Below are positions 2,180-36,583 of a stretch of DNA of 39,012 nt, in pieces. The notes beneath the pieces are model-generated. The model was not told the origin of the DNA, ran no database searches, and worked only from the letters and a program-made list of their open reading frames with translations. Position numbers and translations under genes: made by a program. The stretch is from a virus (Duplodnaviria; Caudoviricetes), in IMG/VR virus record IMGVR_UViG_3300037851_000465, positions 1 to 39,012 of that record. One strand, 5' to 3'. The first letter of the stretch is position 1, and the number at the start of each line of letters is the position of its first letter.

Positions 2180-2626
2180 ATGAGAAAACATCGATTCACC
2201 GCAGCAATCAAAAGGAAAAACCTTTCACAGGGGAAATTGTCGCGATTGATAGGTGTTGATCCATCCTATCTCAGTCAGTTGATAAATGGGAATAGGCCAG
2301 GCGATGGGGTCATGGAGCGATGTGCGGAAGCGTTAGAAGTTTCACCAGAATGGTTGCGAAATGGGATGAATCCCCCTGATTGGTACACGCCGCCAGTCCA
2401 AACCTCCATCGTCTTCGGCCCTGGCAACCGAGGCCAACAGGTCATCGGCGACGGCAACACCGTGGGTTGCATCCCGGCCTTGTGTGCGAACGGGAACGAA
2501 TGCCGGACCATTCATAATGAGCTGGCGGCGGTGATCCGGGAGCGGGATAGCCTCAAGGCGCAGTTGGACGTTTTGCAGAATAAATTGATTGAGGCGGCGA
2601 TATTGCCGAAGAAAGGAAGCAAATGA
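2180..2626 (+). CDS. CI-like XRE HTH immunity repressor with coiled-coil C-terminus and no S24 peptidase domain
   Basis: GGAGG RBS, ATG 2180; LSQGKLSRLIGVDPSYLSQLING...CAEALEVSPEWLRNG; divergent from the leftward promoter. Confidence 0.85.
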   Translation: MRKHRFTAAIKRKNLSQGKLSRLIGVDPSYLSQLINGNRPGDGVMERCAEALEVSPEWLRNGMNPPDWYTPPVQTSIVFGPGNRGQQVIGDGNTVGCIPALCANGNECRTIHNELAAVIRERDSLKAQLDVLQNKLIEAAILPKKGSK

Positions 2627-3201
2627 CCCCGGCCAAACCCCTCCCGCCCACCGTCGCCATCCCCGACGACTTCATTGCCGGGACGCTGATGATTTGTGAA
2701 AAAATCCTGAAACAGGACACCGGAAACCTGACGATTGTTTCGGTTTTCAATAATGCCCACATCGAGTTGCAGGACGACGGCGAACCCAAAGGCGGCATCC
2801 CCATCCCCGCCGCCAGCATGCATCTGCGCATGGTCGCCATGAGACCGACCAGCATCCCCTGGACGGTCTTCCTGCGCGTGCTGACCTGGAACGGCACGCC
2901 CGAACCTGCAACCCGCATCGCGGCCGTCTTCGGTGGGACCACTCATCTGGAGGACGGCGGTCCGCTGGTCTCTGATCTTCCCATGGATTATCGCGGCGGA
3001 TTCTTCCGCATAACACCAGACAGGCCCATACCGACCGATGGGAAACTGTGTGTCACCGCACGGTTTGAATTGTGGACCGGTGACCGTTTCCTGGTTGCCC
3101 AGCCGATTGACTTCCATTATACTTTCGTCAAGGTCCAGCCCCCAACAGCGGAAGGAGAACAGCATGCCAGCGCTCCTCGATCATCCGCAGGTGCCCCATG
3201 A
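2623..3201 (+). CDS. Hypothetical beta-rich protein (DUF6941-like)
   Basis: LMICEKILKQDTGNLTIVSVFN N-terminal motif; ATGA coupling to the repressor. Confidence 0.55.
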   Translation: MTPAKPLPPTVAIPDDFIAGTLMICEKILKQDTGNLTIVSVFNNAHIELQDDGEPKGGIPIPAASMHLRMVAMRPTSIPWTVFLRVLTWNGTPEPATRIAAVFGGTTHLEDGGPLVSDLPMDYRGGFFRITPDRPIPTDGKLCVTARFELWTGDRFLVAQPIDFHYTFVKVQPPTAEGEQHASAPRSSAGAP

Positions 3202-3421
3202 GATCACGGTACATGGGGAAATCGTCAGGGTTACGCTTACCCACGACGAGTTGGGATATTTGGCTGAAGGAAAACCATCATTCGCCGATGGAGTCGTTTC
3301 TGGTGGTGGCGCATCAGAGTCAGAAGCCATCGAGTCATTCATTGATGAATGCGAATTGGTTTTTTCATTTGCCCATGAATCAGACGAACCATGGTGGAAG
3401 GAACGCTACCTTCCGAGGTAG
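3164..3421 (+). CDS. HicB-like antitoxin-fold protein without DNA-binding domain
   Basis: AAGGAG RBS; VTLTHDELGYLAE..SF.DGVVSGGGASESEAIESF fits the HicB N-terminal pattern. Confidence 0.55.
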   Translation: MPALLDHPQVPHEITVHGEIVRVTLTHDELGYLAEGKPSFADGVVSGGGASESEAIESFIDECELVFSFAHESDEPWWKERYLPR

Positions 3422-3424
3422 CAA

Positions 3425-3913
3425 ATGAAAAAGGACGACATTAAACGCGGTTTCATATTTGGCACCTTAGGGATGCCTAAATTCCCGTCTAAAATTCGTT
3501 ATTGCATCGTAACAAAAACAAACGATGATAGTTCATTTACGCTTACGACATTAACGGCAGATAAATACAATTCATTATCTTATCATCAGAAAATACAAAT
3601 AGATCCCAAAGATTTCCCAGAGATTTATTACCATTTCAGATTCAACAAAACAGGACTTCCTGTAGTCAAAAGTTATATTTCTCTGCATAATTATCAAACA
3701 AACTCAACGGCCTTTATGGAAAATGTGGTATTTAGACCAAGTCTGGGTGATCATGGCATGATACAATTAGATAATGGGTCTATGGTTGAAGTTCACCCAT
3801 CAATATCCCGTAGGGTTGAAACTCAAATGAATGAATTTCATTTTAATACGATCGCAAGGACACAAAACAACACGGACTATCAACGCTTTTTTGGCTCCGA
3901 CGAAGACATCTAA
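3425..3913 (+). CDS. AT-rich protein, possible PemK/MazF-like RNase
   Basis: IKRGFIF...P..KIRYCIV...ND...TTLT...GLPVVKSYI resembles PemK motifs; GC far below genome average. Confidence 0.45.
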   Translation: MKKDDIKRGFIFGTLGMPKFPSKIRYCIVTKTNDDSSFTLTTLTADKYNSLSYHQKIQIDPKDFPEIYYHFRFNKTGLPVVKSYISLHNYQTNSTAFMENVVFRPSLGDHGMIQLDNGSMVEVHPSISRRVETQMNEFHFNTIARTQNNTDYQRFFGSDEDI

Positions 3914-3916
3914 CCC

Positions 3917-4984
3917 ATGCCCTCCATCCACTCCCGCCGCCGCAACTGGTATCAAATCCGCTGGTACGAAGGCGGAAAACGCCGCGCCAGCCCCGTGGTC
4001 CGCAGTCGTGCCGACGCCGAAGCCATGTCCCGCGCCATCGAGGCCCGCCTGGCCGCCCAGAAGTCCATAGGGTGCCGTGACGGCCTGCCGCTGCCCCTGG
4101 CCGAAGTCGTCCACCGCTGGAAGACCGACCGCATCAACAACGGCCGCAGCAAGGAATACGCTGACGAAGCCGCCGGCCTGGTCCTGCGCGTGGCCGAGGA
4201 ATACCGCTGGACCCGGACCAGCCACGTCACCCCGGCCGCCATCGATGCCTGGCGACGCGACAAGAAGGGCCGCATTACCCGGACCTTTTCCTACCTGCGG
4301 GCCGTCCTGCGTTGGGCTAGGGATCGCCTGGGCCAAGAAGTCCACCAGGCCGCCCTGGTCGAAACCGCCAAATCGCCCCGCCGTCGTCCCTCGGCCGATC
4401 TGCTCACCGATGACCAGATGACCGCCCTGGAGGCCGAAGCCGCCAAGCAAAGCCCCAGCTGCGTCGCCCTGCTGCGCTTCCTGGCCACCTACGGCCACCG
4501 GCCCATCACCGCCGCCCGCCTGACCGTGGCCGATCTCGACCTGGAGCGCGGCACGCTCACCTTGAACGTCAAAGGCGGCGACACCATCCGCCACGCCGTC
4601 CTTCCGTCCACCATGGACGACCTTCGCCCCCTGATCGAAGGCCAGCGCCCCACCTGTCCCATCTTCCGCACCGTCACCGGCCTGCCCTACCTGGACCCAC
4701 GGGCCACCCGCACCCGCCAGCGCATGCCGGCCTGGTTCCGGGATCTGGCCGCCAGGGCCGGGGTCAAGGCCAGCATCTACGACCTCAAGCGCCTGGCCGT
4801 CTCCCGCCTCTTCGCCGCCGGGGCCGACCTGGCCACCATCGCCAGCATCACCGGCCACCGCACTCCGGCCGTCCTCCTACGCTACGCCAGGACGAATGAA
4901 GCCCGTCAGCAGGCAGCATTACAGCACATCGCCCGGCAACAAACGGACGCACGACGGACGCACGATGGACCACCCCAGGCATAA
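3917..4984 (+). CDS. int: Tyrosine integrase
   Basis: N-terminal arm-binding WYQIRWYEGGKR; catalytic TYGHRP...L.V.D.D, VKGG, YDLKR, TGH...RY; adjacent attP. Confidence 0.92.
   Translation: MPSIHSRRRNWYQIRWYEGGKRRASPVVRSRADAEAMSRAIEARLAAQKSIGCRDGLPLPLAEVVHRWKTDRINNGRSKEYADEAAGLVLRVAEEYRWTRTSHVTPAAIDAWRRDKKGRITRTFSYLRAVLRWARDRLGQEVHQAALVETAKSPRRRPSADLLTDDQMTALEAEAAKQSPSCVALLRFLATYGHRPITAARLTVADLDLERGTLTLNVKGGDTIRHAVLPSTMDDLRPLIEGQRPTCPIFRTVTGLPYLDPRATRTRQRMPAWFRDLAARAGVKASIYDLKRLAVSRLFAAGADLATIASITGHRTPAVLLRYARTNEARQQAALQHIARQQTDARRTHDGPPQA
4945..4964 (+). repeat. Integrase arm-type sites, left pair
   Basis: GGACGCACG at 4945 and 4956 (11-bp period); same motif at 5172 and 5183. Confidence 0.8.
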
Positions 4985-5023: not shown

Positions 5024-5069
5024 TGGAGGCGCCACCCGGAGTCGAACCGGGCTTCACGGATTTGCAATC
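5024..5069 (-). tRNA. 3' half of tRNA-Cys(GCA), the attP core; not a complete tRNA gene
   Basis: Minus strand GATTGCAAATCCGTGAAGCCCGGTTCGACTCCGGGTGGCGCCTCCA: GCA anticodon loop, T-arm, U73 discriminator, CCA; 5' half absent. Confidence 0.92.
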
Positions 5070-5171
5070 GGTTTTTGACTATTTGGCCGAAATGGTCGGA
5101 TAAAAAAACCGGATAAAGCCAATGTTTTTGGAATGTCACCGCGGATGGGACGAGGCTGTATGCGCCCGCGT

Positions 5172-34417: not shown

Positions 34418-35379
34418 CCGACTGCGCGCCGACCTCGGCCGGGTTCGCTGGCAAAGCAGATCCGGTCTTTCGCCTGTTCGACTGCGTGGCGCGCGGCCAG
34501 ACGGTGCGAGGTATCATTCCCCGCTGTTCGTGCGATCTGGCGGCCTCGGCGCTGGCGCGGGCCGAGCAGGGGGCCTTTGCCCTGTGCTACGACCAGGCCG
34601 GCATTGATCCTGCCCCAGCGCCCGTCTTCCGGTCCTGCTGGGGCCTGTTCGATCATCAAAACACCTGGGACTATCTGCACCCGACCAGCGGCGGCGGGAA
34701 GGTGGCCCATGGGTGCGGATGGATTGACGGGACACCTATCGCACCCCATGGCTGGATCTGTTCGGGATCCTTCGGCCACACCTGGGAGGCCGACCATGGG
34801 GCCATGCGCAACAACGGTGGGCAGATCACCGACAGCATGTTCGACCAACTTCCCGACACCATCTCGTTCGACCAGATAGGATCGGTGGCCGTGCATAGGT
34901 CGGCATGTCTGGCGACGGCGTTTGACGGATCAGACACCATCACCGTCAGCAGCCTGACCATCACCAAGGCCAAACGGTTTGAGGGGGACAAGGCCTGGCG
35001 CATGGAGATTGCCGGAACCTTCGCGGGCTACGTCTCGGACGCCTATTATTGCCCGTATTATTGGTGTTTTCCTGGGGCCATGTACCCAACTCTGCATTCC
35101 ATCTTGCGCCCGCGACCAGTTGGCGCGGCGTTCAGTGTTGGCGGTCAACTGCCCTGGATCATGGCGGCCTCGGTGGCCGTGGGCATGGCCGGGGATTGGG
35201 ATGTGTACACCTATCAGCCGGATGGGTATCCGGTGCCCATCAATACCGCATCCAACCACATCGCTGGCGACGCCTGGAAACCGGACTGGATCTGGAAACT
35301 GCCGGATGGCAGTGTCCGCACCCAAAGGATCTATCCGCGCATCCAGGTCCAGATCGGCATTCAGTGTGGTGGCGTATGA
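34414..35379 (+). CDS. Cys/Trp-rich hypothetical tail tip protein
   Basis: GTGA overlap; frame continuous with the tail operon. Confidence 0.55.
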   Translation: MTDCAPTSAGFAGKADPVFRLFDCVARGQTVRGIIPRCSCDLAASALARAEQGAFALCYDQAGIDPAPAPVFRSCWGLFDHQNTWDYLHPTSGGGKVAHGCGWIDGTPIAPHGWICSGSFGHTWEADHGAMRNNGGQITDSMFDQLPDTISFDQIGSVAVHRSACLATAFDGSDTITVSSLTITKAKRFEGDKAWRMEIAGTFAGYVSDAYYCPYYWCFPGAMYPTLHSILRPRPVGAAFSVGGQLPWIMAASVAVGMAGDWDVYTYQPDGYPVPINTASNHIAGDAWKPDWIWKLPDGSVRTQRIYPRIQVQIGIQCGGV

Positions 35380-35606
35380 CCGCCGTGGTCGTCAGTCACC
35401 AGACCGGCCGGGCCATACCGCTGGGACCCATCCCCATGCAGGAACACCGCGCGCGGGAAGCGGCTTGCCGGCAGTGCCAGCATTTCACCGGCGACCGGTG
35501 CCGGCTGATCGGCTGCGCGAGCGCCGACCGCGTCTGGTTGTGGGCGTCACGGTTTGCGGCGTGTCCGATGGGGCAGTGGGCGGGCAGCCATTACGCCAGG
35601 GCCTGA
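35376..35606 (+). CDS. Small Cys-rich metal-binding protein (DUF6171-like)
   Basis: R...C..C......C...GC...CP.G.W motif; stop overlaps the hicB 3' end. Confidence 0.65.
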   Translation: MTAVVVSHQTGRAIPLGPIPMQEHRAREAACRQCQHFTGDRCRLIGCASADRVWLWASRFAACPMGQWAGSHYARA

Positions 35607-35977
35607 CGCGCCGCCTTAGCCAGGAAACCTGAGCGACTGCCCGCCCCGACACGCGCATCAATGCGATGCAGGAGACTGGTCGGAAGGGTGATATTCAGTC
35701 GCACCGACTTGTCCACCTCCGCTACGTTGATGGCGATCCATACCATGGGTTTGTGGGCTCGCACGTCGGCACGCCTCAAAACCACATCCAGCGTATGGGC
35801 GGGCGGTATGGGCTGACCCTGTTCGCGCAGCAGTTCCAGATGTCCAGTCAGGGCCTCAACCGCCATGATACGGGCCTCGTCCAGGGTGCGGCCGGCCGTG
35901 ACGCATCCTGGCAGATCGGGGAAACTGACGCCAAAGTCACTGTCGGCGTCTTTATGGATGGCGGCAAGGTATTCCAT
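35591..35977 (-). CDS. hicB: HicB antitoxin with RHH C-terminus
   Basis: Y.A.IHKD.DS.FGVSFPDLPGC.TAG.T.DEA...A.EAL; VRLNITLP..LL.RID...SRSGFLA.AA. Confidence 0.95.
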   Translation of the reverse strand: MEYLAAIHKDADSDFGVSFPDLPGCVTAGRTLDEARIMAVEALTGHLELLREQGQPIPPAHTLDVVLRRADVRAHKPMVWIAINVAEVDKSVRLNITLPTSLLHRIDARVGAGSRSGFLAKAARQALA

Positions 35978-35988
35978 GGCGTTCCCTT

Positions 35989-36183
35989 TCATCGCGGTGG
36001 CCAAGGCCATCCCGCCTGACGGTAGATGCTGCGCAAGGTTCCCACGGGCAGATCCCGCTTGGGATGGGGCACCGTGACCAGTCCGGGATGCTCGGCATGC
36101 TTGAAATGCCAATGATCACCCGTGGTTCTGATGTGCTGCCACCCGTGGTCACGTAGGCGCTTGATCAGGTGGCGGCTGTCCAT
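35989..36183 (-). CDS. hicA: HicA mRNA interferase toxin
   Basis: MDSR.LIK.L...GW...RT.GDH.HFKH...PG.VTVPHPK.DLP.GTL.SI..QAG. Confidence 0.95.
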   Translation of the reverse strand: MDSRHLIKRLRDHGWQHIRTTGDHWHFKHAEHPGLVTVPHPKRDLPVGTLRSIYRQAGWPWPPR

Positions 36184-36190
36184 GGTGGAT

Positions 36191-36218
36191 GTTATACATA
36201 CGCAGTGTGTATATGCAA
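36191..36218 (-). promoter_or_regulatory. hicAB promoter with palindromic operator (leaderless hicA)
   Basis: TTGCAT-N16-TATAAC-N7-ATG; imperfect palindrome ATACACAC-TGC-GTATGTAT (36194-36212). Confidence 0.75.
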
Positions 36219-36220
36219 GC

Positions 36221-36311
36221 GCCCAACAGGGCGATGCAGCCGACCGGGCGACGATGGGGCAACTGTGGGCGGGATCATGGGCCGCCCGGCGGCTGATCTT
36301 GGGCGTTGGGC
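36221..36311 (+). other. attC: Integron attC recombination site (91 bp)
   Basis: R'' GCCCAAC-5nt-L'' GATGCAGC-CG-A-CCGGGCG...CGCCCGG-CG-L' GCTGATC-6nt-R' GTTGGGC, with both extrahelical bases in canonical positions. Confidence 0.88.
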
Positions 36312-36535
36312 TTCTGCGTGTCACAAGTTAATTTAGGCAGGAAACAAAAAATAAAAATGTCTTTTGTTTCCTGTTCGTTAAGCCACATACAAAACCCGCT
36401 TGGGTATTGTAATTTTACCATTTTCCTATCTGGAGTGAACTCAACGCAAGCAGCCTCCTGAACCATTGACGCAAACCCTCGGTATAAAAACCTATCGCCA
36501 ACTTTTATGTCATCTATTGTTAGCATGCTGCTCAC
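36275..36535 (-). CDS. AT-rich hypothetical protein (SH3/KOW-like start), C-terminus reads into attC
   Basis: DIKVGDRFLY; low GC; ends PNAQDQPPGGP inside the attC. Confidence 0.6.
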   Translation of the reverse strand: MSSMLTIDDIKVGDRFLYRGFASMVQEAACVEFTPDRKMVKLQYPSGFCMWLNEQETKDIFIFCFLPKLTCDTQKPNAQDQPPGGP

Positions 36536-36583
36536 TTTCGTGGAACGGGTTGGTTAGCGGAGTTCGTAGATGTAGTCCATGGG

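Follow-up and report, generated by a model that had tools for sequence, protein, structure and literature searches.

Integrons are treated as bacterial devices, and their cassettes face a promoter at attI. The locus described here raises the question of what a single attC site does in a phage that has no integron integrase (IntI), and whether the toxin-antitoxin pair beside it is a captured cassette. The stretch of DNA analysed, hereafter the window, is a whole virus record of 39,012 bp. Its 157-bp terminal repeat, which has 1 mismatch, makes a circle with one attC likely; CheckV lists the record as linear and 52% complete. Genes for terminase, portal, coat, integrase, repressor-like and anti-repressor proteins are present, so the sequence is that of a temperate phage. 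We argue, with moderate confidence, that the attC, with both neighbouring genes lying backwards, is a cassette swap point recombined by IntI from the host or from a co-infecting phage.

The attC site and its surroundings

As the preliminary description had noted, the site lies at the junction of the + strand late block and the − strand early block. The features needed below are these.

3917..4984, + strand: tyrosine integrase of the phage (distinct from IntI); a 3′ tRNA-Cys-like core comes after it, at ~5025-5070
35376..35606, + strand: last gene of the late block, 76 aa, with the proposed left cassette boundary (35576) inside its coding sequence
35591..35977, − strand: hicB antitoxin, 128 aa, PF15919, its 3′ end overlapping the last + strand gene by 16 nt
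35989..36183, − strand: hicA toxin, 64 aa, PF07927
36184..36220, − strand: putative promoter of hicAB with a palindromic operator, immediately behind R″, identified by eye
36192..36278, − strand: predicted 28-codon ORF that starts in the attC loop, its ATG overlapping the orphan stop (ATGA), and ends 8 nt before hicA
36221..36311, + strand (top strand; the folding bottom strand is −): attC site, predicted crossover G|TT at 36305/36306, from scanner, fold and covariance model R2
36275..36526, − strand: orphan gene, 83 aa (a GTG start at 36535 is possible), inverted relative to attC
36540..36559, + strand: suggested attC remnant, limited to a right arm; its status as a site is unsupported

The attC architecture that had been read from the sequence is borne out over 91 bp: R″ (36221-36227), a 5-nt spacer and an 8-nt L″ (36233-36240) on one side, and L′ (36292-36298), a 6-nt spacer and R′ (36305-36311) on the other. 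The cores, R″ (RYYYAAC) and R′ (GTTRRRY), form an inverted repeat with 7/7 pairs, and the bottom-strand fold (z = −3.29; 0/200 shuffles as stable) keeps both extra bases out of the pairing. This was the sole attC match of our scanner in the window, and 100 simulated windows gave 0 equally good matches. A covariance-model check, which had been proposed for the site, was also run. Our home-made model R2, built on 13 class 1, Shewanella and TJE1 attC sites with the window left out (their alignment was made with an earlier model, R1, which contained the window), found a single match in the window, on the bottom strand, at 52.2 bits (E 4e-10). The R1 score for the window, 78.7 bits, is circular and was left out of the evidence, as was pair covariation on alignment A1, whose sites had been picked for pairing. 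R1, which is phage-trained, detects 7 sites in the class 1 record L049 at 29-51 bits, and a model trained on those finds the window's attC. Box order, spacers and extra bases are indeed those of class 1 sites (MH445380, L049); the difference is in gene placement, which for class 1 is ahead of R″ on the top strand and here is on the bottom strand. The nearest attC sites form a five-site array in another phage, G002, which shares with the window phage a replication-protein segment of 107 residues at 62% identity. Exact attC-arm patterns found nothing in the viral, genome and metagenome collections, and blastn of the site against plasmids gave no match.

A GC-rich region near converging genes could produce a hairpin by chance, or a terminator between convergent operons, and the top strand fold has a z of only −2.03; the simulated windows, the R2 score, which by itself refutes such an origin, and the presence of the same family in arrays reduce its probability to almost nothing. 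On its sequence, the site at 36221-36311 is a genuine attC. By definition the site is a SALIN, a lone attC near which there is neither an integrase nor another att site; a CALIN needs at least two attC sites without IntI, and here there is one, while a complete integron needs an intI gene, which is absent.

Both hic genes are on the − strand, as first described. They are predicted from sequence to be a type II toxin-antitoxin pair, with hicA before hicB and scores of 65.3 and 102.3 bits against a Pfam cut-off of 27. The promoter that had been ascribed to the pair was not recovered by a consensus scan and is plausible by eye only; in an allele from a second sequencing run, X2, the −35 box is by eye better and the operator palindrome is perfect, which favours a hicAB promoter without proving it. 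On the other side, the low-GC orphan reads into the attC, as had been noted, crossing R′ with AAC as an Asn codon and stopping inside the attC loop. It has no Pfam, NCBIfam or PHROG family, and its Atlas leads all fall under 0.9.

The claim that the phage has no IntI of its own holds: the score against TIGR02249 is 12.9 bits against a cut-off of 265, and tblastn of the window with phage IntI found no remnant (best E 2.0). The tRNA-Cys core that had been reported beside the phage integrase is visible, but scores 18.2 bits, under Rfam's 29; Rfam and ARAGORN gave nothing at threshold in the window. A search for the host through this core found no exact match among the species genomes, and Atlas taxa, as a host clue, are mixed. 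The attI-side junctions of 9 viral IntI loci, compared with the window by eye, showed no likeness to it; we know of no general model for attI. Between the repressor-like gene and the integrase, 2623-3913 holds unannotated genes, one of them (3425-3913) visibly AT-rich; two of these genes were tested and have no Pfam or PHROG family, and the stretch is a possible accessory module.

Cassette orientation and sources of IntI in phages

The orientation of genes relative to attC was surveyed in three sets with one composition-based caller, applied alike to all. The surveyed loci include relatives, so the following counts are not independent.

Viral set 1, found with a looser attC pattern (16 viral loci, 11 with sites by the scanner; 33 sites): 23 inverted, 0 canonical, 6 ambiguous, 4 edge
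Viral IntI set, from an IntI alignment scan (288 viral stretches matched, best 80 kept, 39 loci without a called site; 76 sites): 45 inverted, 5 canonical, 16 ambiguous, 10 edge
Metagenome set, from a scan for the window's attC family (125 loci of ~200 stretches; 180 sites): 69 canonical, 6 inverted, 57 ambiguous, 48 edge

Most of the metagenome contigs are presumably bacterial; one, L075, is 508 kb long. On 14 control sites from 4 annotated canonical records, the caller returned 8 canonical, 4 ambiguous and 2 inverted (1 a miscall, 1 probably a false site). The scanner missed sites in Vibrio (L047), in MW202573 and some in Shewanella, and loci called as having none may hold sites. An earlier classifier based on ORF length (20 inverted to 1 canonical in the viral loci, window included; 15 to 57 in the metagenome) was replaced, 7/14 controls having come out ambiguous. 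Inverted genes are thus the usual layout in the phage contigs surveyed, the reverse of the bulk metagenome arrays. Canonical phage arrays do exist, in TJE1, Rctr41k and M16-3; P12002L gave two weak matches (E 0.18) and was kept out of orientation scoring.

The inverted viral genes share further features with the window. AAC at R′ is in frame in 15/15 and 15/16 crossing inverted viral genes (the IntI loci being those from the best 80 of 288 stretches), and likewise in the orphan. An incoming stop falls within 12 nt of a loop ATG at 15/29 viral sites versus 15/143 metagenome sites, and this overlap, too, is present in the window. A loop ATG opens a frame of at least 40 codons beyond the site at 18/29 viral versus 16/143 metagenome sites; the window's ORF has only 28. 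An in-frame ATG through R″ showed no viral enrichment (4/29 versus 29/143).

Several neighbouring observations were made along the way. The published CALIN of MW202573 (L177, 2069-3738) has its bottom strand as the coding strand at all four sites, and is hence inverted. In L023 (2033-2302 and 3685-3987) and L027 (1341-1925), phage genes end in attC-like right-arm peptides where no full site was called; these are possibly decayed half-sites. Inverted arrays repeatedly contain or adjoin DNA methyltransferase genes (L253, L233 and L223; L019 by eye).

The preliminary description looked to the host for an IntI. The host stands as a candidate source; it is not required, since other phages encode IntI beside such arrays. 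None of 19 viral records, 11 of them attC-bearing, passed the IntI cut-off, record G003 reaching 229.5 against 265. The IntI-like protein of G003 adjoins the first inverted cassette and aligns through a region that we take to be the IntI-specific insertion. The G003 array (L037:1-470, L021:5674-5886) spans contig ends into the IntI-like gene, and its two intI-nearest cassettes are near-identical tandem copies, followed by an attI-like junction. Among hand-picked viral IntI, 7/7 passed the TIGR02249 cut-off, and these seven, with two more loci, are flanked by phage integrase, endolysin, terminase, primase or helicase genes. In 37/41 IntI loci with sites (from the best 80 of 288 stretches), attC lies upstream of intI on the opposite strand. 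One locus, L233, runs methylase, inverted cassettes, intI, integrase and a converging endolysin, a setting that matches the position of the window's attC. A true IntI (462 bits) also occurs in viral record L202 (85-2725), two genes before a 40% identical homologue of the phage's replication protein. In Rctr41k (KX853513; L045, 4680-9434), an IntI-like gene annotated xerD is followed in the same direction by five attC-like sites of 127-131 bp with canonical genes; Rctr41k is absent from the phages listed in the accessible part of PMC9892861.

Both host and phage IntI are therefore candidate enzymes for the window's attC. A homogeneous family of 92-93-bp attC sites in canonical arrays (L052, L061, L069, L071 and L075) resembles the window's attC in arms and length, and the integron of these contigs is a candidate host integron.

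Relatives that differ at the site, and the boundaries of hicAB

If genes are exchanged at the attC, relatives should differ there, and the preliminary description had expected gene content to change exactly at G|TT. Related sequences do change at or beside the attC; the exact coincidence with the crossover does not hold for the one nucleotide-level case. Orphan alleles were found on other contigs, P0002 and P0003/P0005, with 66/74 and 69/74 residues identical to the orphan up to the Asn codon at R′. The two L′-encoded residues are kept, after which 1/5 and 0/5 residues match, so that P0002 and P0003 diverge within two codons of the crossover. Tails of this kind would be expected if the same gene were followed by a different attC; P0002 and P0003 are protein evidence only, and a diverged copy of the same site that had suffered a frameshift could look like a new tail.

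The nucleotide-level case comes from run X2, which belongs to a different study. Over 35960-36315, a 398-nt contig of this run shows 7 differences from the window (hicA 0, promoter region 5, attC loop 2, boxes 0) and then continues for 42 unrelated letters. Read by hand, 30 letters of this end are open in the orphan's frame, and the last four residues of this neighbour are those of P0002 and P0003. Seven other pieces of this phage are among the X2 matches listed, at 89-98% identity and similar depth; uncovered bins of the run are no evidence of absence. The match to X2 runs on for 10 nt beyond G|TT before it breaks, and the four additional bases thus shared after R′ stand at that place in 1/109 other viral sites (76 of them from the best 80 of 288 IntI stretches), so X2 is not a clean IntI crossover. 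The junction is one contig at depth 3.9, and could be chimeric or derive from another replicon. A further run, X1, which may be a source of the record, had nothing matching the attC region. A locus search with the phage's 122-aa gene gave 0 loci among those returned, and one with the SbcC-like gene gave 8 distant loci among those returned, none with attC.

These relatives bear directly on the main rival to a swap point, a relic site with ordinary recombination: the attC would be left over from a phage-type array and unused by IntI, its neighbours swapped by mosaic recombination with attC arms or microhomology as linkers. The offset of the X2 break would fit this, as would the four residues that the X2 neighbour shares with P0002 and P0003, the lack of an IntI, attI or second attC, and the two PHROG exonuclease-family proteins that the phage encodes. 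A relic, however, would not be expected to keep its boxes and both extra bases intact, with both within-site X2 differences confined to the loop, nor does it account for P0002 and P0003 changing within two codons of the crossover, and we consider it unlikely.

The second part of the preliminary description, that hicAB is a captured cassette, fared less well. The right boundary is the attC itself; a left core site was not found. The heptamer at 35576 that had been offered as the left boundary occurs 20x on the + strand, and a 95% identical relative of the 76-aa late gene containing it has an unchanged C-terminus. The attC remnant that had been suggested at 36542-36559 does not fold (z ~0) and matches neither R1 nor R2 at E up to 5, and its L′ is >1 mismatch from every L′ occurring at least twice among the fetched sites. 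An 8-codon ORF seen by eye at 36554-36580 (− strand) begins 3 nt after a 73-aa gene and stops in the core of this proposed remnant. With the boundaries at 35576 and 36542 unsupported, hicAB is not shown to be excisable or host-captured. Lacking a left site, and with its 16-nt overlap with the late gene, it is probably fixed.

The notion of hicAB as a host cassette in an exceptional, inverted orientation is likewise unsupported: inversion is the common state in the surveyed phage loci, and the left boundary is missing. In a specific form of it, host IntI would have inserted a bacterial toxin-antitoxin cassette, hicAB together with a promoter of its own, in a single event at a secondary GWT site (attC × attG), as in a SALIN. 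The pair does sit directly behind R″, and the same attC family occurs in canonical metagenome arrays; own-promoter toxin-antitoxin cassettes are known (PMC13108822, accessible text), and SALINs arise at GWT sites (bioRxiv 10.1101/2022.09.11.507474, accessible text). No left junction above chance was found, and no relative with an empty site came up. The nearest sites are in a phage array and the loop stop/start overlap is typical of viral sites, against a bacterial source; so is the outcome of tblastn with HicA and HicB, which found no match in the 125 metagenome loci of the window's attC family (of ~200 stretches). Among viral loci found with HicB, 0/10 had an attC. The orphan alleles themselves have attC-like tails, which a single insertion does not explain. 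Taken with these points, capture from the host is a rather improbable origin.

The perfect pairing of R″ and R′ had been read as the sign of a circular cassette, which does not hold, since it is also found in 7/33 and 13/76 linear viral sites (the 76 from the best 80 of 288 IntI stretches) and in 103/176 metagenome sites, a proportion inflated by the search pattern. This affects the proposal that the whole phage circle is an IntI substrate that integrates into a host integron through its attC. The terminal repeat makes a one-attC circle likely, and a Vibrio prophage flanked by attC sites is reported in the accessible text of PMC9892861; the phage, though, has its own integrase and tRNA-like core, perfect pairing is common in linear arrays, and no joint at attC was seen except one loose end in X2. 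We regard integration by this route as very improbable.

The proposed exchange and its relation to known systems

The swap-point reading draws together the attC anatomy and model score, the orphan alleles, the X2 contig, the orientation counts, the in-frame AAC, the loop stop/start coupling, the phage-encoded IntI, the sites of G002 and published IntI1 data on phage attC. Against it, the ORF starting in the loop ends after 28 codons, and no attI, intI remnant or second attC was found in the window. As we picture it, a phage-type array would lie at the far end of the early operon, and the attC would be its one remaining intact site. Once single-stranded, the bottom strand of this attC would fold and be recombined by IntI at G|TT with the attC of a circular cassette. 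Insertion would place a new gene and a new attC between the orphan and hicAB, and attC × attC excision would restore the state seen in the window. P0002 and P0003 would then be the orphan followed by the attC of an added cassette, and in the X2 contig a different gene would stand ahead of hicAB's attC. The hicAB pair would be on the cassette side with no left site, having perhaps become fixed once attI and intI were lost. Transcription of the genes would come from the early operon, and the loop stop/start overlap may couple their translation.

Phage attC sites and lone attC sites are already published. Qi et al. 2023 (PMC9892861, accessible text) report 17 CALINs in 10,705 phage genomes, and IntI1 recombined 5/6 of the phage attC sites that they tested. 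Their CALINs resemble the window in having attC in a phage without IntI, and MW202573 was inverted too in our orientation test; they differ in that at least two sites were required, where the window phage has one. TJE1 and PH101 are there called typical arrays, P12002L is noted for divergent sites and MW202573 for slots with several ORFs; the accessible text describes neither an inverted-cassette class nor swaps among relatives. A 2026 review cites, in its accessible part, only Qi et al. for phage attC. The SALINs of Loot et al. (bioRxiv 10.1101/2022.09.11.507474, accessible text) likewise have a single attC; they are inserted cassettes in bacterial genomes, whereas the window yielded no insertion junction, has inverted genes and carries its variable slot on the R′ side. 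The toxin-antitoxin cassettes of sedentary chromosomal integrons (PMC13108822, accessible text) also place a toxin-antitoxin pair, probably with its own promoter, beside attC; the window, by comparison, has no array to stabilise, no left site and a phage context. No description of inverted phage cassettes was found in the literature searched, outside which lay subscription journals, bioRxiv supplements and the figures and Dryad file of Qi et al.

The window attC is best read as belonging, in a minimal form without IntI, to an inverted cassette system of the phage type. A wider proposal, to which we give slightly less than an even chance, is that temperate phages maintain an integron cassette pool of their own, whose genes are inverted, share one frame and are translationally coupled through the attC loop, so that they plug into the early operon. 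The window phage would be its stripped-down state, one live attC serving as an empty landing pad for host or phage IntI acting in trans, with relatives carrying extra cassettes there. That viral sites are mostly inverted, while the same family in bulk metagenomes is mostly canonical, points to such a separate phage pool with its own design. Taken singly, the window locus, with one site and relatives in different states, is a modest example; what is of interest is the class. Screens that require two sites, such as those of Qi et al. 2023 and the IntegronFinder default, miss single-attC loci. If it is true that one attC and a borrowed enzyme suffice for gene gain and loss, site-specific recombination would explain part of phage mosaicism.
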